Origin: an uncultured Candidatus Binatia bacterium
Lineage (GTDB): Bacteria > Desulfobacterota > Binatia > Bin18
Length of the DNA stretch: 64,000 bases
Assembly (NCBI GenBank): GCA_965214755.1
Contig: OZ243979.1
Span: 3,669,022-3,733,021, forward strand
Direction of reading: 5' to 3'
Position 1 is the stretch's first letter. Every line of letters begins with the position of its first letter. The notes under the pieces were generated by a model, which was not told the DNA's origin, did not search any database, and saw nothing but the letters and a program-made list of their open reading frames with translations. The position numbers and the translations under genes are program-made. This document shows positions 1 through 43,739 of this stretch, piece by piece.

Positions 1-566
1 TGGAAGGGATAGGCGACTTTGCGCCAGGAACGACACCGACCGTTTTTGCTCTTCCCTTAAAGCGTCAACCTGTCCTCCCCTCGGACGGCAAAGCTATGGA
101 TGCTGACTCTTTTGAGACCTTCGGCGTGCTCATCTGCTATGAGGGCGTTTTTCCTGACCTCGCGCGTCGCTTCGTTCATAATGGCGCGCGGCTGCTGATC
201 AATGTGACCAATGATGCCTGGTTTGGAGAGACCTCGGCCCCCTATCAACATCTAGCCATGGAGGCCATGCGGGCCGTCGAGAATCGCGTTCCCCTAGTGC
301 GGTCCGCAAATACCGGGATTTCAGCTATTGTGAATATCGATGGACAGATTCAGGCCCAAACAGCGCTCCTGGAGACCACCTTTATTGCCGACCAGCTTGT
401 CTGGCCCCACGTGACCTCTTTCTATACCCGGTACGGTGATTGGTTCGTGACGTTGTGCGTCGTCGGGACGCTCGTTATGCTAAGCTACGCAGGGATAATT
501 GTATTATTCGTAAAGCGAAACGGAGGAGGCGGAGATGCTGGCAGAAATCAGAGAAAAACTAAATGA
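1..566 (+). CDS. lnt: Apolipoprotein N-acyltransferase, C-terminal part (5' partial; CN-hydrolase domain)
   Basis: Reading frame is open from position 3 to the stop at 566; translation ...VLICYEGVFPDLARR...NVTNDAWFGETSAPYQHL... matches the Lnt nitrilase-like domain; a TM-like C-terminal stretch follows. Confidence 0.6.
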   Translation, partial: EGIGDFAPGTTPTVFALPLKRQPVLPSDGKAMDADSFETFGVLICYEGVFPDLARRFVHNGARLLINVTNDAWFGETSAPYQHLAMEAMRAVENRVPLVRSANTGISAIVNIDGQIQAQTALLETTFIADQLVWPHVTSFYTRYGDWFVTLCVVGTLVMLSYAGIIVLFVKRNGGGGDAGRNQRKTK

Positions 567-1729: not shown

Positions 1730-1783
1730 AAAGAGGAAACGTGTCCACCAATCAGGCACAGAGGCTGGATACGTTTCCTCTTT
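1730..1783. repeat. Palindromic repeat element copy 1 (family consensus AAAGAGTAAACGTGTCC-N20-GGACACGTTTACTCTTT)
   Basis: aaagaggaaacgtgtccacc...ggatacgtttcctcttt; the two arms are complementary with compensatory changes; intergenic between prfB and the next gene. Confidence 0.8.
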
Positions 1784-1817: not shown

Positions 1818-1871
1818 AAAGAGTAAACGTGCTCTCCAACAGGCATGAGATGCTGAGCACATTCACTCTTT
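1818..1871. repeat. Palindromic repeat element copy 2 (tandem with copy 1)
   Basis: aaagagtaaacgtgctctcc...gagcacattcactcttt. Confidence 0.8.
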
Positions 1872-1885
1872 ACTAGGGGGAGACC

Positions 1886-2803
1886 ATGAACGCGCTGACG
1901 ATTGAACGAATTCCAGAACTGAACGATCCCGTCCTGATTGTCGCCTTTGCCGGCTGGAACGATGCTGGCAGTGCGGCGACGCATGCCACGCAATTCCTTA
2001 TCAAACGACTCCAGGCACGGCGTTTCGCGAAGATCGATCCTGAAGAATTTTATAATTTCAGTGAGGTCCGTCCCCACGTGCGTCTGCGAGATGGACTCTA
2101 CCGCGAGATTCGCTGGCCGGCCAACGAGTTCTTTGCGAGTAGTGCAGAGCAGCTCAAACGCAGCATGGTCCTTGGTCTGGGCATTGAGCCGCATCTCCGC
2201 TGGAAGGCGTATTCAGCGGCCTGCCTGGAGGTTGCCAAGCAATGCGGAGTACGCTTGGTGATTACCCTGGGTGCGCTCTTGGCCGATGTTGCCTACTCCA
2301 GACCGGTGCGCGTGGTCGGATTTAGCAGCGATCCCGATATTGCGACGCAACTCCAACTCACTCCGTCCCGTTACGAGGGCCCAACGGGCATCGTCGGGGT
2401 GCTGAACGATGCCTGCCGGCAGGCTGGACTGACGTCCATCAGTTTCTGGGCCAACGTGCCGCACTATATTTCCGCGTCTCCAAACCCCAAGGCGGCCCTG
2501 GCCCTCGTTAGCCGTCTCGAGTCCTTTCTCCACTTCGCCCTGGATACGACCGAGCTGGTGACCGGCGCGGCGGAGTTCGACGCCCAGGTCGCAAAGGCGA
2601 TTGCCGAGAATCCCAACCTGGCCGCCTATGTCAAGCGCCTGGAAGAACAGGAGCAGGAAGAGGGGCTGGAAATGGAGACGGCTGCTCAGGACAAAGCCGG
2701 CAACGGACACGGCAACGGCAATGGGCATGCCAATGGCAAAGATATGGCCGAAGAACTCCAGCGCTTTTTGCAGCAGCGTAAGGACCGCAAAGATGACGAG
2801 TAA
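1886..2803 (+). CDS. PAC2-family (proteasome assembly chaperone-like) protein with a C-terminal GNGH low-complexity tail
   Basis: 305 aa; LIVAFAGWNDAGSAATHA motif typical of the PAC2/DUF75 family; C-terminal GNGHGNGNGHANG encoded by a short tandem nucleotide repeat. Confidence 0.5.
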   Translation: MNALTIERIPELNDPVLIVAFAGWNDAGSAATHATQFLIKRLQARRFAKIDPEEFYNFSEVRPHVRLRDGLYREIRWPANEFFASSAEQLKRSMVLGLGIEPHLRWKAYSAACLEVAKQCGVRLVITLGALLADVAYSRPVRVVGFSSDPDIATQLQLTPSRYEGPTGIVGVLNDACRQAGLTSISFWANVPHYISASPNPKAALALVSRLESFLHFALDTTELVTGAAEFDAQVAKAIAENPNLAAYVKRLEEQEQEEGLEMETAAQDKAGNGHGNGNGHANGKDMAEELQRFLQQRKDRKDDE

Positions 2804-4307
2804 AACCCGGTCCGATCCGGACAAGTCCGTCTATCTGGTGAATCTGGGCTGTCCCAAAAATCTGGTGGATGGCGAGGTCATGCTCGGCCTGCTGGCGGAG
2901 GCGGGCTATACGCTGAGCCTTGACCCGGAACAGGCCGGGGTCCTGATGGTCAATACGTGCAGCTTTATTGATGAGGCCAAGGAAGAGTCGATTGAGACGA
3001 TCCTGGACCTGGCGGCCTATAAGGCGACGAAGACAAAGCGGAAACGTGTCCTCCAATCATCCAAAAAAGCTGGACACGTTTCCGCTTTCGAGAAACAGCT
3101 CATCGTGACCGGTTGTCTGGCCCAGCGCTACGGCCAAGAGCTGCGCGAAGTATTGCCCGAAGTGGACGTTTTTGTAGGAACGGGCGAGTTTCTGCGGATC
3201 ACCGAGATATTGGCACAGAAGCGGCGCGCGCTTGAAAAGCGGGAACGTGTCCTCCAATCATCCAAAAAGGCTGGACACGCTTCCTCTTTTGGCCCCACCC
3301 TGTATCTGGGGGCCTCCCACATCCTGCCGGACCACACCGTTCCGCGTATTCCGACCACCCATTTTTACTCGGCCTATCTCAAGGTTGCCGAGGGCTGCAA
3401 CCATAAATGCGCCTTTTGTATTATTCCGAAAATTCGCGGCTTACAGGAAAGTCGGCCGATCGCCTCTCTCGTGGAGGAGGCCACCGGACTGGTTGCGCAC
3501 GGGGTCAGAGAAATCAATCTCATTGCGCAGGACCTGACCGCCTATGGGCGAGAGCGCCGCGATGGGACAACCCTGCTCGCTCTGCTCAAATCTCTTGTGC
3601 GCGTTGAGGGTCTGGACTGGATTCGGCTGCTGTATTGCTATCCGAATTATCTTGATGAACCCCTGTTGCGTCTCATCGCTGAAGAAGAACGGGTGTGCTC
3701 GTATATTGATATGCCACTCCAGCACATCAGCGACCGGATGTTGAGGCGGATGAAGCGCGAGAAAAGTGGGGACGGCATTCGCCGCGTATTGGACCGGATT
3801 CGAGCCGCTATTCCGGGTGTGGTCTTACGCTCGTCTTTTATTGTTGGCTTTCCCGGTGAGCGGGAGGACGATTTTCAACAACTGAGCGATTTCGTGACCG
3901 AGGCAGCGCTCGACCACGTGGGGGTGTTTCGCTATTCCCAGGAGGAAGGGACGGCCGCGGGCACAATGGCCGACCAGATCAGCGAAGAGATCAAAGAAGA
4001 CCGCTGGCACAGGTTGATGGCCCGCCAGGCCGAGGTCGTGCGTAAAAAAAATATGGCGCTGGTGGGTGAGGAACGAGCGGTACTAGTCTGTGGCCAGGAC
4101 GATCACGACCGTTGGTGGGGACGGACGCAAGGCCAGGCTCCGGATATCGATGGCATCGTCTTCCTGGAACAGTGCCTGGCTGACAGCGGCGATATGATCC
4201 GCACCCGGATTACCGGGGCGTCCGGCTATGACCTGCAAGCTTTATGTCTTCCCGAACAGCCGCTTCAACAGCTCACAGCTCTTGACTTGGCCGCCGCTTC
4301 TCCCTAA
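2793..4307 (+). CDS. rimO: Ribosomal protein S12 methylthiotransferase RimO (MiaB-family radical SAM + TRAM), carrying two in-frame repeat-element insertions
   Basis: MTSKTRSDPDKSVYLVNLGCPKNLVDGEV...CNHKCAFCIIP (radical SAM CxxxCxxC)...TRAM-like C-terminus; about 60 aa longer than typical RimO because of two ~19-aa insertions (KRKRVLQSSKKAGHVSAFE and KRERVLQSSKKAGHASSFG) encoded by repeat copies 3 and 4. Confidence 0.8.
   Translation: MTSKTRSDPDKSVYLVNLGCPKNLVDGEVMLGLLAEAGYTLSLDPEQAGVLMVNTCSFIDEAKEESIETILDLAAYKATKTKRKRVLQSSKKAGHVSAFEKQLIVTGCLAQRYGQELREVLPEVDVFVGTGEFLRITEILAQKRRALEKRERVLQSSKKAGHASSFGPTLYLGASHILPDHTVPRIPTTHFYSAYLKVAEGCNHKCAFCIIPKIRGLQESRPIASLVEEATGLVAHGVREINLIAQDLTAYGRERRDGTTLLALLKSLVRVEGLDWIRLLYCYPNYLDEPLLRLIAEEERVCSYIDMPLQHISDRMLRRMKREKSGDGIRRVLDRIRAAIPGVVLRSSFIVGFPGEREDDFQQLSDFVTEAALDHVGVFRYSQEEGTAAGTMADQISEEIKEDRWHRLMARQAEVVRKKNMALVGEERAVLVCGQDDHDRWWGRTQGQAPDIDGIVFLEQCLADSGDMIRTRITGASGYDLQALCLPEQPLQQLTALDLAAASP
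3035..3089. repeat. Palindromic repeat element copy 3, in-frame inside rimO
   Basis: aaagcggaaacgtgtcctccaatcatccaaaaaagctggacacgtttccgctttc; lies entirely within the rimO reading frame without a stop. Confidence 0.8.
3235..3290. repeat. Palindromic repeat element copy 4, in-frame inside rimO
   Basis: aaaagcgggaacgtgtcctccaatcatccaaaaaggctggacacgcttcctctttt; same orientation and frame as copy 3. Confidence 0.8.
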
Positions 4308-4338
4308 GGTATCTGTCCTTTTTATCTCGACCGTGGTG

Positions 4339-4394
4339 AAAAAGGATAAACGTATCCAGCTTTTTTAGATTATTGGAGGATACGTTTATTCTTT
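4339..4394. repeat. Palindromic repeat element copy 5 (opposite orientation; arms carry a compensatory GTATCC/GGATAC change)
   Basis: aaaaaggataaacgtatccagcttttttagattattggaggatacgtttattcttt; the loop is the reverse complement of the loops in copies 3/4. Confidence 0.8.
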
Positions 4395-4406
4395 GGAGAA
4401 GGTGTC

Positions 4407-4826
4407 ATGAGAAAAACATTCCTCAAAAAAATGCGGACGACGCTCGCCGGCCAAAAACAGCAAATCCTGTTGCAGCTTGACGAAGAAATCCGAGAGGGAA
4501 AAGAGAGTGAGCTGGACGAAGGGATGGATACCTACGATCTCGCCAGCGAGGAGCGCGAACGGGAAATTCATCTGATTCTGAGTGACCGCGATCGGGACAA
4601 ACTGCAAGCCATAGAAAACGCACTGGAGCGGATCGAAGAGGGCGAATACGGCATTTGCGAAGACTGCGAAGAAGAGATCGCCCAAGCCCGTCTCGAAGCC
4701 TTGCCATTCACCAGACTGTGTATTGCCTGCCAAGAGGAACGCGAAAAGGAAGCGCGCTTTCAGCGCCGTATTGATGATGGGGGTGGATTCAGTCGGTCCA
4801 ACCTAGTTGATCTGGACGACGGGTAA
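4407..4826 (+). CDS. dksA: DksA/TraR-family C4 zinc-finger transcription factor
   Basis: 139 aa; acidic coiled-coil with DTYDLA (DxxDxA tip motif) and CEDCEEEI...CIAC zinc finger. Confidence 0.6.
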   Translation: MRKTFLKKMRTTLAGQKQQILLQLDEEIREGKESELDEGMDTYDLASEEREREIHLILSDRDRDKLQAIENALERIEEGEYGICEDCEEEIAQARLEALPFTRLCIACQEEREKEARFQRRIDDGGGFSRSNLVDLDDG

Positions 4827-4903
4827 GATCAGCCTCGCCTTTTTTCTCGGCCCATTCCGGTTGCCCGCACAAGGTGCCCCCTCTGTCGGCCCGCTGTGAT
4901 GAG

Positions 4904-6355
4904 ATGCGACCCGACGACCGACACACGCTGCTCACGGCACTCTTTTGGACGGCCATTGACGCGGTTCATCCGCGCCATCTGATCCCACAGACTGTTACGA
5001 TTGAAAAGGAACGGCTGATCGTTCGGCCACGTTCCCTCTTCGAGACCGCTGGCACGTTGACGCTCGCTCTGACGGGTCGCCTCTTCCTGATTGGGGCAGG
5101 GAAGGGGGCAGGCAGCATGGCCCAGGCGCTGATGTCCGTGCTCGGCCAGAGGAGAGAAAGAGTACGTGTGCCCTCCAACCATACAAAAAAGCAGGCCACG
5201 TGCCCTCTTTTTGGCGGCTGTATCATCATTCCGAGCGAGCAAGCGGTGTCTGAGCTGTCTCTGCCTGGAGTGCGGGTAGTGCAAGGCGAGCATCCCTTGC
5301 CTGGACCGGGCAGTGGGTACGCGACTCAAGCGCTTATGGAGAGCCTCTCCCAGACCCAACCCCACGACCTCGTCCTATTGTGTCTGACCGGCGGGGCTTC
5401 CAGTCTGCTCGTGCGCCCCGCGGTCGGGCTGACACTTTCAGACAAGACCATCACCAATGCTGTTTTATTGGAATGCGGAGCAGACATCCTGGCGCTGAAC
5501 ACCGTACGCAAACACATATCCCAGATAAAGGGCGGCTGGCTCGTGCACCACGCTCAGCCCGCGACTGTGGTCAGTCTGATTCTGTCGGACGTAATCGGTG
5601 ACGATATGAGCGTGATCGGCTCGGGCCCGACCGTCGCCGATCCAACGACGTTTATGGATGCCTGGCGGGTAGTGGAGCATTACGGCATCGCACCGCGGCT
5701 CCCTCAGTCCGTGCGTGCGCATCTGCAGAAAGGAGTCCGTGGAATCAGACCTGAGACGCCAAAACCCGGAGCCCCGATATTCTCTCGCGTCCACAATATA
5801 TTGATTGGGTCGAATCGCTTGGCCTTACAGGCTGTTCGCGAGGCTGCCGCGCACCGGGGGCTGCGCTCCCACCTGATTTCTCAGCCCCTCGCTGGTGACA
5901 CCCTCGTGGCCGGACGCGCTTTTGCCCAGACCCTGCGTACCGTTCGTCAACACTGCTCTGGCCCGACGTGCGTTCTGGCTGGTGGCGAGACAACGGTGCA
6001 GGTCCGGGGCACTGGGAAGGGAGGGCGCAATCAGGAGTTCGCGCTGACTGTCGCCCAAGAGCTCGCCGGGGAAGCCGGGTGGAGCCTGCTGAGTGCGGGA
6101 ACGGACGGCATAGATGGTCCGACCGATGCTGCCGGAGCCTTTGTGAACGGCCAGACGCTGAATCGAGCGCGTCGAAAAAATCTCGATCCCGCTCAATTTC
6201 TGCGCAATAATGACACTTATACTTTCTTTGCTGCTCTCGGTGACGTGTTTCGCCCAGGCCCAACGGGAACAAACGTGATGGACATTAAAATTGCGCTTGT
6301 GTATCCTCCCGGCGCTGAAGAGTGCTCCGGCAAAAAAGAACAGAACAGAGAGTAG
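4904..6355 (+). CDS. Glycerate 2-kinase / hydroxypyruvate reductase-like protein (MOFRL family) with an in-frame repeat-element insertion
   Basis: LIGAGKGAGSMAQAL, DVIGDDMSVIGSGPT, GGETTVQVRGTGKGGRNQEFAL motifs; alternative start at 4874; insertion RRERVRVPSNHTKKQATCPLFGG is encoded by repeat copy 6. Confidence 0.65.
   Translation: MRPDDRHTLLTALFWTAIDAVHPRHLIPQTVTIEKERLIVRPRSLFETAGTLTLALTGRLFLIGAGKGAGSMAQALMSVLGQRRERVRVPSNHTKKQATCPLFGGCIIIPSEQAVSELSLPGVRVVQGEHPLPGPGSGYATQALMESLSQTQPHDLVLLCLTGGASSLLVRPAVGLTLSDKTITNAVLLECGADILALNTVRKHISQIKGGWLVHHAQPATVVSLILSDVIGDDMSVIGSGPTVADPTTFMDAWRVVEHYGIAPRLPQSVRAHLQKGVRGIRPETPKPGAPIFSRVHNILIGSNRLALQAVREAAAHRGLRSHLISQPLAGDTLVAGRAFAQTLRTVRQHCSGPTCVLAGGETTVQVRGTGKGGRNQEFALTVAQELAGEAGWSLLSAGTDGIDGPTDAAGAFVNGQTLNRARRKNLDPAQFLRNNDTYTFFAALGDVFRPGPTGTNVMDIKIALVYPPGAEECSGKKEQNRE
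5155..5212. repeat. Palindromic repeat element copy 6, in-frame inside the glycerate-kinase-like gene
   Basis: agaaagagtacgtgtgccctccaaccatacaaaaaagcaggccacgtgccctcttttt. Confidence 0.75.
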
Positions 6356-7917: not shown

Positions 7918-7973
7918 CGAAGAGGAAACGTGTCCAGCTTTTTTGTCTGATTGGAGGACACGTTCACTCTTTG
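7918..7973. repeat. Palindromic repeat element copy 7
   Basis: gaagaggaaacgtgtccagcttttttgtctgattggaggacacgttcactcttt. Confidence 0.8.
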
Positions 7974-8018: not shown

Positions 8019-9515
8019 GTGTTTTCAAAGATACTCATTGCAAACCGAGGTGAGATCGCCACTCGTATCGCTCGGACCTGTCGCGAAATGGATATTACGA
8101 CAGTGGCCGTGTACTCGGAGGCTGACCGTTCTTCACCCCATCTGTATGCGGCAGACGAGGCTGTGTGCGTGGGGCCGGCCCAGGCAAGCGAGAGCTATCT
8201 CAACGTGGAGTCTATCCTGGCCGTGGCCCGCCGGACCGGAGCCGACGCGGTCCATCCAGGGTATGGCTTTTTATCGGAGAATGCAACATTTGCTCGGGCC
8301 GTGGCTGATGCCGGTCTGACCTTTATCGGTCCTGCTCCAGATGCCCTGTCTGCGGTTGGAAATAAGATTGTTGCGCGCCGGACCGTGGCTCAACTCGGCG
8401 TTCCGGTGATTCCCGCCCTCGAAGACCCGGCGACCGACCCTGAGACTGTACGGGAGCAAGTTGCCGCACTCGGCTACCCCCTCTTGATTAAAGCAGCTGC
8501 GGGTGGGGGCGGTAAAGGAATGCGTATTGTGCGCCAGGAGGCCGAGTTGGTTGACGCCTTGTCCGCGGCGCAACGCGAAGCCGAAGCCGCCTTTGCCGAA
8601 GGCACGGTGTATGTCGAGCGTTTTCTCGAACGTCCACACCATGTGGAAGTCCAGATTCTTGGTGACACCGCCGGCAACATCGTCCATCTTGGCGAACGGG
8701 AGTGCTCCATTCAGCGCCGCTATCAAAAAATAGTCGAAGAGACCCCCTCGCCAGCCGTGTCCGAGTCCTTGCGGCAGGAGATGACGAGGGCCGCGCTGAC
8801 TGTGGCCAGGGCTGCGGGTTATGACAACGCCGGAACCGTAGAGTTCATCCTCGACAACGCCGGGAAATTCTATTTCCTGGAAGTCAACGCCCGTCTCCAA
8901 GTTGAGCATCCGATTACCGAGTGGATTACTGGTCTGGACCTGGTGCACGAACAAATTCGGATTGCCGCCGGAGAAACGCTGGGCTTCCAGCAAGACGACA
9001 TCTACCGTAATGGCCACGCCCTTGAGTGCCGTCTGTATGCGGAAGATGCCGCCCACGGGTTCCTGCCGTCACCCGGACATGTCCTGGCCTGGCATGCGCC
9101 CCAGGGGCCAGGAGTGCGGGTTGACTCCGGGGTCGAGTCGCAGACCGAGGTCCCGATATACTACGATCCCATGATTGCCAAGATTTCGACCTGGGGAGCG
9201 GACCGTGAACAAGCCCGGCGACGCATGGCCGGGGCGCTTCGTCAAACGGCAATTCTGGGACTCACGACCAATCTGCCTTTTTTGATTGAGCTCATGGACC
9301 ACCCTGCCTTTGCCGCCGGCGATACCCACACCGGCTTTCTGCCCGAGCATTTTCCGAACTGGCAGCCTGGCGAGCAGCCGCATACGCTTGCTGCCGCTTT
9401 GGCCGCCAGCCTGCACCGCGGTCCATATCGAAACGCTGATGGACAGACCGCTCTGCCCTCGCAGGACCCCTCGACACCGTGGCGACAGCTTGGCGGCTGG
9501 CGCCTCGGCTCCTGA
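8019..9515 (+). CDS. Biotin carboxylase subunit of an acyl-CoA carboxylase (BC domain + start of BT region)
   Basis: MFSKILIANRGEIATRIARTCREMDI...HPGYGFLSENA...ATP-grasp...EHPITE; 498 aa. Confidence 0.85.
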   Translation: MFSKILIANRGEIATRIARTCREMDITTVAVYSEADRSSPHLYAADEAVCVGPAQASESYLNVESILAVARRTGADAVHPGYGFLSENATFARAVADAGLTFIGPAPDALSAVGNKIVARRTVAQLGVPVIPALEDPATDPETVREQVAALGYPLLIKAAAGGGGKGMRIVRQEAELVDALSAAQREAEAAFAEGTVYVERFLERPHHVEVQILGDTAGNIVHLGERECSIQRRYQKIVEETPSPAVSESLRQEMTRAALTVARAAGYDNAGTVEFILDNAGKFYFLEVNARLQVEHPITEWITGLDLVHEQIRIAAGETLGFQQDDIYRNGHALECRLYAEDAAHGFLPSPGHVLAWHAPQGPGVRVDSGVESQTEVPIYYDPMIAKISTWGADREQARRRMAGALRQTAILGLTTNLPFLIELMDHPAFAAGDTHTGFLPEHFPNWQPGEQPHTLAAALAASLHRGPYRNADGQTALPSQDPSTPWRQLGGWRLGS

Positions 9516-9540
9516 TACCCGAATGATTCTGAAACGACTC

Positions 9541-9594
9541 AAAGAGTAAACGTGTCCTCCACTAGACATGATATGCTGGACACGTTTACTCTTT
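9541..9594. repeat. Palindromic repeat element copy 8, between the BC ORF and the BT/BCCP ORF
   Basis: aaagagtaaacgtgtcctccactagacatgatatgctggacacgtttactcttt. Confidence 0.85.
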
Positions 9595-10121
9595 CTGAAA
9601 TGAAGACCTTCCTCTATGCCGCGGGTGAAGAACTGGTGCTGGAGTATAACCAACACGGCGAGCGCGACGATCTGTACGAGCTTGTCTGGAACGGCCAGAC
9701 TCAGCAACCGGCACACGTGGTCGCTATCCGGGATGGTACGATCACCTTCCTGGTTGATGGTCTCCCTCTTCATGCCTATGTGGTCCGGGATGGTGACCGC
9801 AGCCTGATATCCATCGAGGGGCGGACCTACGAATTCAATCACACTCCACCTCAGCACACCCGAGCCCGTCAGCGGGGGACGAGTGGAAGCTTTGAGCCTG
9901 AGATCCGCTCTCCCATGCCAGGGAAAATTCTCAACGTCAAAGTCGTCGAAGGCGAGGTTGTAGGAGACGGCCAAACCCTCGTGCTCCTCGAAGCGATGAA
10001 AATGGAGAATGCGCTGACTGCCGAGGGGAATGCCCGGGTGGCAACCATCCATGTGGCCGACGGAGACCTTGTCGAGCTTGGTCAGGTTCTGGTCGAGCTT
10101 GAGCCAATCGAAGCAGAGTAA
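9552..10121 (+). CDS. Biotin carboxyl carrier (biotinyl domain) protein with an N-terminal BT-like region; the annotated start lies within repeat copy 8
   Basis: C-terminal EAMKMEN biotinylation motif; the N-terminal ~100 aa resemble the BT-domain hairpins of PCC/MCC alpha subunits; true start may be 9573 or 9601. Confidence 0.65.
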   Translation: MSSTRHDMLDTFTLSEMKTFLYAAGEELVLEYNQHGERDDLYELVWNGQTQQPAHVVAIRDGTITFLVDGLPLHAYVVRDGDRSLISIEGRTYEFNHTPPQHTRARQRGTSGSFEPEIRSPMPGKILNVKVVEGEVVGDGQTLVLLEAMKMENALTAEGNARVATIHVADGDLVELGQVLVELEPIEAE

Positions 10122-10138
10122 GCCCAGTGAACGTACTC

Positions 10139-11053
10139 TCAGTCGAGTTGGGAACCTATCTGAAGCCCGATATGCCGAGCGAGCTCGTCAGCGGCGATCT
10201 TTCCCTGCTCACCGCGAAGCTTTTTGGCGACGACCGTGCCACCGTTCAGGGCAATACTGACCGTCCCACCCCCAAGAGCGACCACTTGGCCTGGGGTTGC
10301 TGATCCGCCAGTCGGCTGCAGGCGACAGTCATACAAACGAATTTTCTGTCCGCGCCATGTTGTTGATGCGCCGGGCTGCGGGTCGCAACCGCGAATATGA
10401 TCAAAGACGGCGTGTGCTGGCTTAGACCAGTCAATGCCAGCATGTTCGTCCCGACACAACGGATCGTAATTGGCCTGGGATTCGTCTTGGACAATGCGCG
10501 GCGGACTGCCGGCTTGAATCAGATCGATCGCTTCGCCAGCGGCCTCAATACCGAGCGGGAAGAGTTTGTTGAAATACAGGGTTCCGGTTGTATCTTCCGG
10601 GCCAATTTCGACTTCTTTTTGAAGCAGTATCGGACCGGTATCAATGCCCTCGTCTACCCAGAACCAGGAGATCCCGGTCTTTTTCTCACCATTGATCAGG
10701 GTCCAGTTAATCGCACTCCCACCACGATACTTGGGTAAGAGTGACGGGTGAAAACAGATACTGCCGAGTTTGGGTGCGTTGAACACTGGAGGCGGAACAA
10801 TTTGGGTCACAAATGCCAATACGGCGAGGTCAGCGTCGAGTTCCTGAAATTTCTCCAGGACCTCAGGGCCCTTCATGGAGCGGTGTTGATACACGGGAAT
10901 GTCGAGTTCCCCTGCCCGCTTTTTGACCGGATCAAACTTTCCTTCGATTCTGTCCGGGGGGCAGAACACCGCCGGGATGTCCTGACCCTTGTCGCGGAGC
11001 TTATCGAGCGTTTTTTCCGCAAACGCGGCTTGACCGATGAGAATGATACGCAT
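10139..11053 (-). CDS. Formyltransferase-family protein (methionyl-tRNA formyltransferase-like)
   Basis: HPSLLPKYRGGSAINW and DTGPILLQ motifs of the formyl-transferase fold plus a C-terminal Fmt-like domain. Confidence 0.55.
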   Translation of the reverse strand: MRIILIGQAAFAEKTLDKLRDKGQDIPAVFCPPDRIEGKFDPVKKRAGELDIPVYQHRSMKGPEVLEKFQELDADLAVLAFVTQIVPPPVFNAPKLGSICFHPSLLPKYRGGSAINWTLINGEKKTGISWFWVDEGIDTGPILLQKEVEIGPEDTTGTLYFNKLFPLGIEAAGEAIDLIQAGSPPRIVQDESQANYDPLCRDEHAGIDWSKPAHAVFDHIRGCDPQPGASTTWRGQKIRLYDCRLQPTGGSATPGQVVALGGGTVSIALNGGTVVAKKLRGEQGKIAADELARHIGLQIGSQLD

Positions 11054-25088: not shown

Positions 25089-25143
25089 AAAGAGTAAACG
25101 TGCCAACAGCTATGCATGATACGGACGGCACGTCTACTCTTTC
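25089..25143. repeat. Palindromic repeat element copy 9
   Basis: aaagagtaaacgtgccaacagctatgcatgatacggacggcacgtctactctttctg. Confidence 0.75.
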
Positions 25144-26600
25144 TGTAAAATTGCTTGATATTCGAGCGGAATGCGCTGCTGGGGGGCATTTTTCTCCGGC
25201 GGACGATCAGCGAGCGGGGCGTTGCTATACGGTGTGGACGGGACAGCCGGGCTGGTATTTTCGGTCAATTCCTGGCTGTCCTGTTCCGCCCTGATACCGG
25301 TCGGAATACGAATTTTGACATAGCGGGCAGCCTGCGTCAGAAATCCGCCGGGCCGCTCGCCCGGTTGGTAAAAACGCTCGCCTTTTCCCTGCCCGCCAGA
25401 TTGTCCGGGCTGCTGGCCTGACTGCTCTGGGGCCTGCTGAGGCTGTTTTCTCTCATTGCTCTGCTGCGTGGCGTGACGGCGCTGTTCGTGCCCTGCTTTG
25501 TGCGGATCTACCCCGGAAGGTGGCTGCTGGGCGTCCGGTTGTTGGCCTGGTTGCGGTGTTTGTTGTTGCTGACCGGAGGTATTCTGTTGGGCCTGTTGCT
25601 TGCCTTTTTGTTCTTGAGACTGGGGCTGGTCAAATTTGATGCCGCCGCCGGATTCCTGGGGAGCGCTTTGGTGCTGTGACTGTTGCTTGTCTGATTGATC
25701 CGTCTGGTTTGTATTTTGCGCGCCCGGCTGCGTCTTGTCTCTCTGAGCAGACAGCGACTGCTTGAGGTGCTCCAGATTTTCATGTGTTTTCGCTAGCGGC
25801 GTATGCTCCGGCTGCGGGCTGTCGCCCTGGTTGCCCGGACTATCGTTTTGCTTGCTGTCGCTCCCGAAGAGCTTGGGATCAAGCGGAAGAATCTGCGGCA
25901 TTGGCAGCGGCAGATTCATGCGTTTTTGCGCCTCATCAATCAGGCGCATCTTCTCCTGGGGAGTCAGCGCTGGATTCTTGAGCTCCTGAGAGAGTACGAG
26001 GAGTTGGGCTCCGACTTGCTGTTCTTCAGGAGAAGACTGTGAGCGGATTAACTGCCGGGCCATGTCTTCAATATCCCGGAGCAGGGTTTCAGGCGTCGGC
26101 GCAACAGGTGAGGGGCGGCTTGGAGCCAGGGCTGCGCTGCCGGATGGTAAAAACACGAAGAGCAGACCACTCAGGACGGCACCGACGCACGCAAAAGGAA
26201 CACGCCTGTCGAGTTGGAAAGGTAGGTCTCGATCAGGAACGAAGAAGGCTGCCTTCCGAGCGGCTTCGCTCCGAACCTGGGCCACGAAGTCTGAGGAAGA
26301 GGGCAGGGTCGCCAGGGTGAGAAAACGCTCTTGGCCATCCGTCTTCTCGTCTAGCAGGCTTGCAATGTTCTCGTCTTGGCACCCCTTTTTTCCCTGTCTG
26401 AGGGATTTGAGTAGAAAGCTGAAGACGACGACGGATGGAAGAAAGGAAAATCCAATGGGTAGCGCATATGCCAGGATCAGACGGTACCCCAGGAAAAAAA
26501 CAGCAATCCCCAGGGGTAGAAAAAATCCGAGGGCATTGGCGCTCCGCTGCCACAATACCCGGCGGGCCGTAGTCGTGAACAGGTGAGACAAGCTATCCAT
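25134..26600 (-). CDS. Membrane protein with a long Gln/Pro-rich low-complexity C-terminal region (MoxR partner?)
   Basis: Start MDSLSHLF at 26600 (ATGgaTAG overlap with the mltG stop); TM helices then a Q/P-rich segment; the longer ORF-track start 26924 overlaps mltG and is rejected. Confidence 0.5.
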   Translation of the reverse strand: MDSLSHLFTTTARRVLWQRSANALGFFLPLGIAVFFLGYRLILAYALPIGFSFLPSVVVFSFLLKSLRQGKKGCQDENIASLLDEKTDGQERFLTLATLPSSSDFVAQVRSEAARKAAFFVPDRDLPFQLDRRVPFACVGAVLSGLLFVFLPSGSAALAPSRPSPVAPTPETLLRDIEDMARQLIRSQSSPEEQQVGAQLLVLSQELKNPALTPQEKMRLIDEAQKRMNLPLPMPQILPLDPKLFGSDSKQNDSPGNQGDSPQPEHTPLAKTHENLEHLKQSLSAQRDKTQPGAQNTNQTDQSDKQQSQHQSAPQESGGGIKFDQPQSQEQKGKQQAQQNTSGQQQQTPQPGQQPDAQQPPSGVDPHKAGHEQRRHATQQSNERKQPQQAPEQSGQQPGQSGGQGKGERFYQPGERPGGFLTQAARYVKIRIPTGIRAEQDSQELTENTSPAVPSTPYSNAPLADRPPEKNAPQQRIPLEYQAILQKE

Positions 26601-27600
26601 TGCGCGAGCCACGTTTCTGAAACCGGCGAACCGCGCGATTATGATCCGCAAGCCGGGAAGAGAATACGTGTGTGCCATCTCCCCGAGCAACAAAATAGAG
26701 GTAGTCCGTTTCGGCTGGGGAGAGGACGGCTTGAATAGCCGCGAGTCCCGGGTTGGCAATCGGGCCAGGCGGAAGGCCAGTAAACAGATAGGTATTATAC
26801 GGCGTGGGCGTCCGTAGATGGCGACGGGTGATATTCCCGTCAAAGTTCGGAATGCCATAGATGACGGTTGGATCACACTGGAGTGGAATATTTTGCCGGA
26901 GCCGATTGTGAAAGACTCCGGCAATCAGCGGACGTTCCTCTGCCGCCCCGGTTTCTTTCTCAATGAGCGAGGCCAAGGTCAGGACCTCATGCCGGGAGAA
27001 CCCCAACTCTTGGGTCTGTTGTTGCATGGCCGGGGTGAAGACTTCGGACAGACGTGTGACCATACGTCCCAGAATATCAGCCGCAGAGCTTTGCTTTGAA
27101 AAAAAATAGGTGTCCGGGTACAGGTAACCTTCAAGTCCGTATTCCTGGAGGTCCCATCTGGCTAAGAACTGAGCAGAGGTGCTCAGAGACAGGAATTGCT
27201 CTTGGGGGCCCAACCCCTGGTCTTCCAGTCTTTTGGCAATTTGTTTGAGTGTCAGTCCTTCCGGGATCATAACCATGTGGTGGATGACCTGACCTTGGGT
27301 CAATGTCTCAAGCAACCTCCGCGGGGTCAGCGGGGTTTCCAGGAGATACTCCCCACTCTGTATGGAATGGTCTTTGCCTGTGAATTGCGCCCAGAAACGA
27401 AATGGCTGAACGCTTGCCAGGATGCCTTCGACAACAAGCATCTGCGCCGTCTGTTGGAGAGTACTGCCCGGAGAGATAAAGATTCGAGCAGGAGCCGCTA
27501 AAGACGGGCCTGGTGTGTTGAGCCGGGCATAGACGTAACAGGCGGTGAGTCCGCTGACGCCAATGACAAGCCACGCGGTGAGAGGCAGAACTTTTTTCAC
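26593..27600 (-). CDS. mltG: Endolytic murein transglycosylase MltG (YceG family)
   Basis: C-terminal YLYFVARGDGTHVFSSRLADHNRAV; likely GTG start near 27600 (VKKVLPLTAWLVIGV TM helix); the ORF track extends to 27735. Confidence 0.65.
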   Translation of the reverse strand: MKKVLPLTAWLVIGVSGLTACYVYARLNTPGPSLAAPARIFISPGSTLQQTAQMLVVEGILASVQPFRFWAQFTGKDHSIQSGEYLLETPLTPRRLLETLTQGQVIHHMVMIPEGLTLKQIAKRLEDQGLGPQEQFLSLSTSAQFLARWDLQEYGLEGYLYPDTYFFSKQSSAADILGRMVTRLSEVFTPAMQQQTQELGFSRHEVLTLASLIEKETGAAEERPLIAGVFHNRLRQNIPLQCDPTVIYGIPNFDGNITRRHLRTPTPYNTYLFTGLPPGPIANPGLAAIQAVLSPAETDYLYFVARGDGTHVFSSRLADHNRAVRRFQKRGSRNG

Positions 27601-29294: not shown

Positions 29295-29693
29295 ATGCTG
29301 TCCCATACGGAAAAACTTCGGGTTCGGTGGGTCGACACTGATGCGTCGGGTCGCATTCATTACACAGCAGCGTTCCGGTATTTTGAGATAGCCGAGTGGG
29401 AATTGATGCGGCAGGCCGGGTTCCCGTTGTCCGATCACCGCAAAATATCAGGGCTGCCGCGGGTGAACGTCTCGGCAACATTTTATGCTCCCCTCTGTGT
29501 CGATGAACCGATTGAGGTAAAGGTCTGGGCTGAGCGGATTGGGACCACCTCCATTACCTTTGCCGGGGAAATCCACCGAGCCGGAGAGCGCTGCGTCAGT
29601 GGGTTGATTACCGCGGTTTTTGTGAATCCGCAGGACCAGCCTCAGCCCATTCCCGAGGCCGTTCGCCATGCTCTGAGCGCTGCGAAAGAGTAA
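29295..29693 (+). CDS. Acyl-CoA thioesterase (hotdog / 4HBT family); stop codon supplied by repeat copy 10
   Basis: RVRWVDTDASGRIHYTAAFRYFEIAEWELMRQAG. Confidence 0.7.
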   Translation: MLSHTEKLRVRWVDTDASGRIHYTAAFRYFEIAEWELMRQAGFPLSDHRKISGLPRVNVSATFYAPLCVDEPIEVKVWAERIGTTSITFAGEIHRAGERCVSGLITAVFVNPQDQPQPIPEAVRHALSAAKE

Positions 29694-29738
29694 ACGTGTC
29701 CAGCTGTGTAGCGGTAGAGAAGGACACCTTTATTCTTT
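29685..29738. repeat. Palindromic repeat element copy 10
   Basis: aaagagtaaacgtgtccagctgtgtagcggtagagaaggacacctttattcttt; its AAAGAG-TAA supplies the last two codons and the stop of the thioesterase gene. Confidence 0.75.
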
Positions 29739-36668: not shown

Positions 36669-36725
36669 TAAAGAGTACACGCGCCCTCCAAACCATACAA
36701 AGCTGTTGGCACGCTTACTCTCTCA
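36669..36725. repeat. Palindromic repeat element copy 11 (degenerate arms)
   Basis: aaagagtacacgcgccctccaaaccatacaaagctgttggcacgcttactctctc. Confidence 0.65.
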
Positions 36726-38353: not shown

Positions 38354-39619
38354 ATGCCAGAACAGGGACAGGATCGATACTCCCAAACGGTGTGCCTGAA
38401 CCAACGGGCCTACGCCTTCCCGCATCGGCCTGTAGTCGTGATCTGTATAGACGGGTGCGATCCAGCTTATATCAAGACCGGGCTGGCCCAGAACATTCTA
38501 CCCAACATCCAGCGCTTTCTCACCCAAGGGTTTGGCACTTGGGCGGACGCGGTCGTCCCAACGTTTACGAATCCGAACAACCTGTCCATTGTCACGGGCA
38601 GTCCGCCCGCCGTGCATGGGATTTCGGGGAATTACTTTCTTGATCCGACAACAGGACAGCCGGTCATGATGACCGATCCCCGCCAACTCCGCTCAGAAAC
38701 CCTGCTGGCGCGCTTCTCCCACAGCGGGGCCAAAGTCATCGTCATCACCGCCAAAGAGAAACTGCGCCGTTTACTTGGCCACGGCATCGCCGACGGGATG
38801 TGTTTCTCTGCCGAAAAAGCGGAGGAGTGTACCATCCCCGTGCATGGTATTGAGAACGTGTGTCAGCGGCTTGGTCGTCCACAGCCCGCCGTCTACTCTG
38901 CCGAGCTGTCACTTTTTGTCTTGGAAGCCGGCCTCGCCCTGCTCGAACAACACCGACCGGATCTGATGTATCTCTCGCTGAGCGACTACGTCCAACATAA
39001 ACATGCGCCGGGGAGTGCAGAAGCGAACGCGTTCTATGCCGCGCTTGACCGGGCGTGCGGTCAGCTGGCTCAGGCAGGAGCCTTGGTCGCCCTCGCCGCC
39101 GACCATGGGATGAACGCCAAACCGCGGGTCGTATTTCTCCAGGATATCCTGGACACGAGTTGCGGTCAGGGCAAGACACGCGTGATCTGCCCGATTACCG
39201 ACCCCTACGTAGCCCATCATGGTGCCTTGGGGTCCTGTGTCCGCGTCTACTGTCCTGGTACGGACCGGGCTGCCGTGCGGGCTATCATCGCAAACATTCC
39301 TGGGGTTGAGGCGGTCTATGAGAGGCCCACCGCGTGTGCACAGTTTTGCCTGCCGCCCGACCGTGAGGCTGATCTCCTTGTACTTGGCGATCAACTCACG
39401 GCCGTTGGTGCGGCAGAACGAGACCATGATTTGTCCGGGTTAGGAGGTACGCCGCTCCGCTCTCATGGCGGACGCGCGGAACAGGTGGTGCCATTCATTC
39501 TTTCTGAGCCCGTCTCCGAGGCGTACCATACCCGCGCGGCAACCGTTCGGCCCAGCAACTTTGACCTGTTCGACTACGCTTTGAATGGGACAAAAAGAGT
39601 AAACGTGCCAACCGTTTGA
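38354..39619 (+). CDS. Alkaline-phosphatase-superfamily hydrolase (phosphonoacetate hydrolase / nucleotide pyrophosphatase-like); C-terminus and stop encoded within repeat copy 12
   Basis: VVICIDGCDPAYI...TFTNPNNLSIVTGSPPAVHGISGNYF (AP-superfamily metal-site motifs). Confidence 0.55.
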   Translation: MPEQGQDRYSQTVCLNQRAYAFPHRPVVVICIDGCDPAYIKTGLAQNILPNIQRFLTQGFGTWADAVVPTFTNPNNLSIVTGSPPAVHGISGNYFLDPTTGQPVMMTDPRQLRSETLLARFSHSGAKVIVITAKEKLRRLLGHGIADGMCFSAEKAEECTIPVHGIENVCQRLGRPQPAVYSAELSLFVLEAGLALLEQHRPDLMYLSLSDYVQHKHAPGSAEANAFYAALDRACGQLAQAGALVALAADHGMNAKPRVVFLQDILDTSCGQGKTRVICPITDPYVAHHGALGSCVRVYCPGTDRAAVRAIIANIPGVEAVYERPTACAQFCLPPDREADLLVLGDQLTAVGAAERDHDLSGLGGTPLRSHGGRAEQVVPFILSEPVSEAYHTRAATVRPSNFDLFDYALNGTKRVNVPTV

Positions 39620-39646
39620 TCTGTTTGGAGGCGCGTTTACTCTTTT
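39593..39646. repeat. Palindromic repeat element copy 12 (opposite orientation)
   Basis: aaaaagagtaaacgtgccaaccgtttgatctgtttggaggcgcgtttactctttt; its left arm encodes the last residues (KRVNVPTV) and TGA of the upstream gene. Confidence 0.75.
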
Positions 39647-41459: not shown

Positions 41460-41516
41460 AAAAAGAGTCGACACGCTAGCAGCTTTGCATGACTTGGAGA
41501 GTGTGTTGACTCTTTA
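41460..41516. repeat. Palindromic repeat element copy 13 (degenerate)
   Basis: aaaagagtcgacacgctagcagctttgcatgacttggagagtgtgttgactcttta. Confidence 0.6.

Positions 41517-43663: not shown

Positions 43664-43739
<76 letters not shown>

Follow-up and report, generated by a model that had tools for sequence, protein, structure and literature searches.

Rickettsia palindromic elements (RPEs) add roughly 35–50 amino acids (aa) to proteins of their hosts, obligate intracellular Alphaproteobacteria with reduced genomes. They are ~105–146 bp long (PMC3184786) and lie both between genes and in-frame in unrelated housekeeping genes, the same gene sometimes being hit twice (PMC10969869, PMC3733652); the short RPE-4 and RPE-6 bear a CGTC end tag (PMC3733652). 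Repetitive extragenic palindromes (REPs) are 20–40 nt long, with 5–13 bp stems and terminal GTAG or CGTC, often occur as inverted dimers and, in the GTAG types, flank RAYT genes (PMC3733652). A catalogue of REPs lying in-frame within genes covers Opitutus, Thauera, Xanthomonas, Stenotrophomonas and sphingomonads; the genes hit often encode UvrD/Rec-type helicase-nucleases, tRNA synthetases or tRNA-modification enzymes, some with two insertions, and flexible linkers or loops were proposed as the insert positions (Di Nocera et al. 2013, PMC3733652). [quoted passage not shown] The element described here is a 54-nt palindromic repeat in a 64,000-nt stretch (the window) of an uncultured Candidatus Binatia bacterium (GenBank GCA_965214755.1, contig OZ243979.1, positions 3,669,022–3,733,021), where two copies are inserted in rimO and one in a glycerate-kinase-like gene. 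These inserts very probably belong to a lineage-specific, high-copy, hairpin-forming selfish repeat with REP/MITE-like behaviour that has spread through a Candidatus Binatia clade.

The repeat consensus consists of two arms, AAAGAGTAAACGTGTCC and GGACACGTTTACTCTTT, separated by a 20-nt loop (one example is TCCAATCATCCAAAAAAGCT), and folds into a 17-bp stem, with orientation set by the asymmetric loop. A whole-window repeat search, an arm-mismatch scan (replacing a first regex scan that under-reported copies) and a covariance model, trained on window copies and used to score and extend the set, gave 12 clear copies and two divergent candidates (41462–41515 and 59–112), the latter added by the covariance model. 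Eleven of the 12 clear copies are exactly 54 nt long and all 12 score 58–78 bits (E-values 1e-13 to 1e-19), while predicted RNA hairpin energies of window copies range from -12 to -29 kcal/mol. A 28-nt core pattern has three matches in the window, compared with none expected in shuffles. The region that attracted attention originally, 3035–5212, contains four copies of this one repeat, and three copies in the window are wholly within intact genes. As had been claimed, two of these lie within the rimO reading frame and one within the MOFRL glycerate-kinase-like open reading frame (ORF), none introducing a stop, and the insert peptides had been quoted correctly. The host genes and their inserts are:

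2793..4307, plus strand: rimO host gene, 504 aa, with UPF0004, radical SAM and TRAM domains (Pfam; 91% identity to best homologs)
3035..3088, plus strand: rimO insert 1, encoding KRKRVLQSSKKAGHVSAF, RimO aa 82–99 (covariance model, 78.4 bits)
3236..3289, plus strand: rimO insert 2, encoding KRERVLQSSKKAGHASSF, RimO aa 149–166 (covariance model, 72 bits)
4904..6355, plus strand: glycerate-kinase-like host gene, with DUF4147 and MOFRL domains (Pfam; PDB relatives 1X3L and 2B8N)
5157..5210, plus strand: diverged repeat copy in the glycerate-kinase-like gene, peptide ending ..RVRVPSNHTKKQATCPLF (covariance model, 63.9 bits)

Each insert adds exactly 18 aa (54 nt), one fewer than the ~19 aa first given. 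RimO homologs at 85–92% identity, identified by homolog search, have lengths of 504, 486 or ~466 aa, and in the alignment each step in length is one 18-aa block corresponding to one repeat copy. Both blocks are present in P0001 and P0002, only the first in P0003, P0005, P0007, P0010 and P0011, only the second in P0004, P0008, P0009 and P0012, and neither in P0013–P0018 or any more distant ortholog. The window protein (504 aa, with insert-plus-flank peptides ..KATKTKRKRVLQ.. and ..HVSAFEKQLIV..) exceeds the insert-free orthologs closest to it (466 aa) by 38 aa, 36 of them contributed by the repeats, and an earlier estimate of ~60 extra residues was too high. In syntenic DNA from three relatives, filled and empty rimO sites differ by the 54-nt element only, with no duplicated flank: the L113 and L111 orthologs lack exactly the 54 nt of insert 1, and the L112 and L111 orthologs exactly those of insert 2, with the empty-site junctions AAGAC^CGAG and CTTGA^TGG. 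The alignments bear out the expectation that the inserts are specific to a lineage and match the repeat base for base.

That the segments are native ancestral protein merely resembling the repeat has a negligible probability, as they are absent from outgroup orthologs, including every distant RimO and the solved RimO of Thermotoga maritima (PDB 4JC0, with a gap at the position of insert 1), and as their nucleotides match intergenic copies over all 54 nt, unpaired loop included. MAG (metagenome-assembled genome) assemblies can be chimeric, so the inserts were also considered as assembly artefacts, or the host genes as pseudogenes. No point in support of this was found and it is exceedingly improbable, given full-length ORFs in which the Pfam architecture is complete and the catalytic residues do not vary, recurrence of the same inserts in independent ENA, NCBI and Logan assemblies, and flanks that are 85–92% identical at the protein level across species. 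In RimO, the cluster cysteines Cys20/56/108 and C202xxxC206xxC209 are invariant in the alignment, and the host genes are intact.

In a neighbour-joining (NJ) tree built with the insert columns removed, both rimO inserts are limited to a clade of ≥85% identity, within which their distribution (pattern 12/10/02/00) is patchy. The inserts are partially deleted in P0008 and P0011, and in P0009 the second is partly deleted and the first site retains a two-residue ‘NF’ remnant. The patchy pattern and the partial deletions, taken together, are indicative of repeated gains, losses or recombination at the rimO sites, as judged from a single-protein NJ tree.

An AlphaFold2 model of the window RimO, generated from a 72-sequence alignment, is of moderate quality (mean predicted local distance difference test score, pLDDT, 73), and ‘surface loop’ is therefore used here for low confidence combined with a position between secondary-structure elements. 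Insert 1, in which 17/17 stem pairs are formed at the nucleotide level (RNA minimum free energy, MFE, -28.4 kcal/mol), had been assigned to the inter-domain linker but lies inside the UPF0004 domain (aa 13–129, Pfam). It has pLDDT <50 at residues 82–98 and is placed between a helix (extended by DSSP to residue 88, with low confidence starting at 82) and strand 102–107, which leads to the third cluster cysteine, C108. The linker position instead belongs to insert 2, which is modelled at the end of helix 133–157, ahead of the radical-SAM domain, with pLDDT <50 at 159–165. Both inserts are predicted to occupy low-confidence segments between secondary-structure elements, and the model, within its moderate quality, is consistent with a functional enzyme that tolerates insertions in its loops.

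The glycerate-kinase insert is also lineage-specific, since the orthologs of three syntenic relatives lack exactly 18 aa here; at the DNA level the site has a net gain of 54 nt compared with these relatives, with two substitutions at the left junction. The inserted peptide, ERVRVPSNHTKKQATCPLF, is in the ‘RGNVSSN..DTFPL’ frame, the sequence that the element base-3 frame reads in other genes. The first full codon of this copy is at element base 3 (R-V-R-V-P-S-N...C-P-L-F), whereas that of the rimO copies is at element base 2 (K-R-K-R-V-L-Q...A-G-H-V-S-x-F), and the frames therefore differ: the kinase copy at 5157 is one base off the rimO register, and the original statement of a single frame for all three inserts did not hold. 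A separate indel, unrelated to the repeat, affects aa 43–50 (~5030–5053) of the same protein, where the window has RPRSLFETAGTL, L111 and L113 have RP--------TL and L112 has RPRD--ETVGAL; the length of this N-terminal loop changes independently of the repeat.

Beyond the window, an exact-pattern scan of 185,579 species genomes identified at least 110 blocks of 8 kb and, among the matches listed, nearly all blocks are from Candidatus Binatia MAGs, whose chromosomes (~3.8–5.2 Mb) are placed in an uncultured candidate phylum, Binatota. The matches listed also include a 4.9-Mb chromosome labelled Thermodesulfobacteriota, which additionally carries the RimO homolog P0002. Rescanning the window and the listed 8-kb blocks (0.96 Mb in total, the basis of the family-wide counts that follow) yielded 199 copies, of which 134 measure 54 nt, 35 measure 55 nt and the others 46–60 nt. 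After dropping one ascertained copy per block, ~69 extra copies in 840 kb correspond to ~1 copy per 12 kb and to some hundreds of copies in each genome, a rough estimate that ignores clustering. Close pairs are scarce (the 194 copies include only seven pairs within 200 bp, and no orientation is favoured), and REPIN/BIME-like inverted doublets were ruled out as an organisation for this family, as copies are almost all singletons. Local pile-ups resembling those described for pneumococcal repeats were seen in L076 (4609–4700; two copies overlapping by 22 nt, possibly an element within an element) and in L043 (4783–5153; three copies ~100 nt apart). None of the literature found on Binatota together with palindromic repeats describes the 54-nt element.

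Copies within genes were sought across the family with a log-odds model of codon usage, for which Pfam-verified ORFs were the training set and which identified the true frame in 31/31 held-out 240-nt chunks. Both flanks share one continuous open coding frame in 21 of 186 scorable copies (~11%), all of them stop-free, and the other ~89% are not in-frame intragenic; surviving copies are mostly intergenic. Of the in-frame copies, 19 are 54 nt long, one is 51 nt and one, doubtful, is 55 nt. Hosts confirmed by Pfam are alanyl-tRNA synthetase, MnmG (two sites), MnmE, an Mrp/MnhA antiporter subunit, a UvrD-like helicase, an AddB-like helicase-nuclease (two sites), a CoA-transferase III and a MoxR AAA+ ATPase, with the insert often inside the catalytic domain, while BamD and an acyl-CoA dehydrogenase are less certain. 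For the second MnmG insert, one of two genomes with 94% identity has the 18 aa and the other an exact gap. The element is read in no fewer than four orientation/frame combinations, and the resulting peptides are unrelated.

Stable ~50-nt hairpins within coding sequence superficially resemble translational bypass elements (T4 gene 60, mitochondrial byps), and the inserts might accordingly be removed from the transcript or bypassed by the ribosome rather than translated. Removal or skipping would leave length and stop codons unconstrained, but every in-frame copy is stop-free and 20/21 are a multiple of three nt (3n) long, a restriction that is partly circular because the in-frame class required both flanks to share a frame. 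A Pfam scan of four 55-nt copies in long stop-free ORFs found no support for these ORFs, and those around the copies in L042, L070 and L100 were treated as spurious or antisense. Neighbouring same-strand, same-frame flanks split by a stop numbered 18, compared with ~13 expected from the 26 different-frame neighbours; this is no excess, and there is therefore no sign of a hidden stop-containing in-gene class. Untranslated inserts are, on these grounds, very improbable.

An apparently older in-gene copy was detected close to the start of the window:

59..112, plus strand: probable old decayed copy inside lnt, ..LKRQPVLPSDGKAMDADSF.. (covariance model, 23.2 bits, E = 0.001)

The decayed copy seems to be fixed in Lnt (apolipoprotein N-acyltransferase), occurring in all five Binatia relatives (..LKRQPALHPDxKAGxVEAF..), with homologous copies scored at L112 329–382 and L019 7643–7696, and the segment is largely gapped (~17 of its residues) in Pseudomonas aeruginosa Lnt (5N6M). 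It is probably an old insertion kept longer than those in rimO.

Stem pairing across the family is 95%, compared with 90% in shuffles, and pairs change together: pair 7-48 is T-A 69 times and G-C 40 times, and pair 15-40 is T-A 105 times and C-G 11 times. Co-varying subfamilies keep the stem paired, and its structure matters for spread. In the G7:C48 subfamily (arms AAAGAGGAAACG...CGTTTCCTCTTT) the variant pair removes the sole stop codon of the arms and changes Val/Thr/Tyr to Gly/Pro/Ser, so that this form is open in 5/6 frames (P = 0.04), while the two main consensus forms have three open frames, which is unremarkable (P = 0.32). Intergenic copies average 3.76/6 open frames, compared with 2.16 in shuffled sequences, but copies are related and the main forms unremarkable, and stop-codon avoidance was set aside as a family property, for which the evidence is suggestive and does not establish it.

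G7:C48 copies are enriched among in-frame inserts (12/19 compared with 30/108; Fisher p = 0.0066, with copies not independent). This enrichment, the still well-paired stems of the in-gene copies (17/17, 15/17 and 14/17) and retention of the decayed lnt copy in all five relatives might be taken to mean that the element has been domesticated, with in-gene copies or their mRNA hairpins kept as useful (as a translational pause, RNase site or basic loop). However, near-identical orthologs have the inserts only patchily and some inserts are partly deleted, the host proteins have unrelated functions, the different orientation/frame combinations yield unrelated peptides, and purifying selection filtering insertions accounts for the subfamily enrichment equally, making domestication improbable. 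Filtering by protein tolerance and adaptation would explain the enrichment equally well. A ‘codon-compatible’ selfish element, with its 18-codon modal length and open Gly/Pro/Ser G7:C48 form, moving as a hairpin by a mechanism that is neither GTAG-RAYT nor MITE and capable of exact excision, is a doubtful proposition; if true, it would be an element adapted to colonise the coding sequence of a gene-dense genome.

The selfish-repeat explanation favoured here also has to account for movement. The element ends in AAAG/CTTT in more than 80–95% of copies, and direct repeats of 1–5 nt flank the 173 unique copies at chance frequency only; insertion is of a discrete unit, sharply bounded by AAAG...CTTT and leaving no target-site duplication. 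A hairpin, lack of duplication, apparently exact empty sites and co-varying stem subfamilies would fit a structure-specific, probably single-strand mechanism like that of REP/RAYT, or an IS200/IS605-type (RAYT-like) Y1 transposase. A copy landing in a gene would survive only if it comprised whole codons (54 nt = 18), presented a stop-free frame and fell in a loop or linker, such that in-gene copies would be the survivors of purifying selection on 3n length, open frame and loop position. Survivors would presumably be read through, transcribed and translated as an 18-aa disordered loop, persist as roughly neutral passengers, decay by point mutation and small deletions, and be lost in some lineages. 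The flanks of the 173 copies also have a weak symmetric preference (G/T-rich at -6/-5, C-rich at +5, T depleted at +6), possibly a palindromic target preference or the trace of a slightly longer ancestral stem, which is not seen at the rimO empty sites.

Several points weigh against this explanation. No RAYT/Y1 gene was found by tblastn in the 0.96 Mb with approximate E. coli RAYT and IS608 TnpA queries (E ≥ 0.26), no transposase or autonomous parent element turned up in the 8-kb blocks around copies, and ORFs between neighbouring copies (250–1500 bp apart) are ordinary (e.g. lipoproteins, enoyl-CoA hydratase-like), none being transposase-like. In its consensus and end profiles the element is without the GTAG or CGTC end tags of the known REP super-families (PMC3733652). 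Translation of the inserted peptides is presumed from their reading frames, placement of the inserts in surface loops leans on the AlphaFold model and is only moderately secure, and the patchy presence of the rimO inserts in the NJ tree may be due in part to recombination instead of repeated gain and loss.

Compared with the described systems, the Binatia element is like RPE-1 to RPE-10 in being a palindromic selfish repeat that is both intergenic and in-frame, adds a peptide without inactivating the protein and hits some genes twice. It differs in its modal length of 54 nt/18 aa (134/199 copies), in its AAAG/CTTT ends with no terminal CGTC, in being read in several orientation/frame combinations and in residing on MAG chromosomes of several Mb. 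The description ‘RPE-like’ is thus apt for tolerated in-frame insertion as a behaviour, but the element is an analogue in another phylum and not a member of that family. With GTAG/CGTC REPs it shares high copy number as short hairpins, a mainly extragenic location with a minority in ORFs, the absence of target-site duplication and a striking overlap in host classes; the differences are its length, 17-bp stem and 20-nt loop, the missing tag, the near-exclusive occurrence of singletons and the lack of any RAYT seen with it (0.96 Mb, approximate queries). In behaviour it is closer to intragenic GTAG/CGTC REPs than to RPEs.

MITEs typically have terminal inverted repeats, target-site duplications and a recognisable parent insertion sequence (IS). 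The Binatia element resembles ERIC/IRU, RU-3, YPAL, BOX/SPRITE, Coxiella QMITE1 and the Anabaena elements as a small non-autonomous hairpin that is sometimes fused in-frame or extends the 3′ ends of genes, the copies at 39594 and 25089 in the window supplying the stop and last codons of neighbouring genes. Its arms could act as terminal inverted repeats, but there is no duplication, either across the 173 copies or at the empty sites. The element acts like RPEs, REPs and MITEs yet belongs to none of them, being set apart by length, tag and duplication.

In-frame palindromic inserts are already known outside Rickettsiales, and their description as rarely reported there was overstated, with in-frame intragenic REPs catalogued in several phyla (PMC3733652); the Binatia family is a real, robust and unusually clean further example. 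It provides a cleanly documented case, in an uncultured candidate phylum, of small palindromic repeats absorbed as extra loops in essential enzymes. As the in-frame inserts are carried by MAG chromosomes of ~3.8–5.2 Mb, the RPE phenomenon extends beyond reduced genomes of intracellular bacteria. The many closely related complete MAGs, in which sites are filled, empty or partly deleted, could serve as a natural series for studying how random 18-aa loops are tolerated by proteins and how quickly they decay or disappear. By lengthening orthologs in multiples of 18 aa, the inserts can also mislead gene callers, alignments and the placing of domain boundaries in Binatia MAGs.

The remaining window copies are as follows, the first nine found by the arm scan and covariance model (additional evidence in brackets):

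1730..1783, plus strand: intergenic copy, prfB/PAC2 gene
1818..1871, plus strand: intergenic copy, 34 nt past the 1730 copy
4341..4394, minus strand: intergenic copy, rimO/dksA, in inverted orientation
7919..7972, minus strand: intergenic copy (core pattern)
9541..9594, plus strand: intergenic copy, arms a perfect match to the consensus
25089..25142, minus strand: copy between two minus-strand genes, ending ORF 25134–26924
29685..29738, minus strand: intergenic copy
36670..36723, plus strand: intergenic copy, diverged
39594..39645, minus strand: 52-nt copy, ending ORF 38354–39619 (frame read from sequence)
41462..41515, minus strand: divergent family member, intergenic, with compensated arms (27.8 bits; MFE -22.9 kcal/mol)

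The copy at 39594–39645 encodes the final ~8 residues and TGA of ORF 38354–39619, and that at 25089–25142 the final two residues and stop of ORF 25134–26924 (minus strand). The 54-nt copy at 9541 is inside an antisense ORF (9072–10187) that has no Pfam match and was taken as spurious or antisense. The first 10 kb of the window has nine of the 12 clear copies (~1 per 1.1 kb), compared with three in the other 54 kb, and this hotspot covers lnt-prfB-PAC2-rimO-dksA-glycerate kinase. A scan of the window at Rfam gathering thresholds placed no family on the repeat, its sole match being a tRNA gene at 43664–43737. Within the hotspot, prfB has a classic programmed +1 frameshift (535–607): the short frame starts with the ATG at 535 and ends ..GGGAGG CAT CTT TGA C, with the slip site CTTTGAC at 601–607 and a Shine-Dalgarno-like GGGAGG upstream. 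The listed 352-aa prfB ORF (581–1639) is the post-shift frame, and gene callers likewise give only 351–352 aa in relatives.

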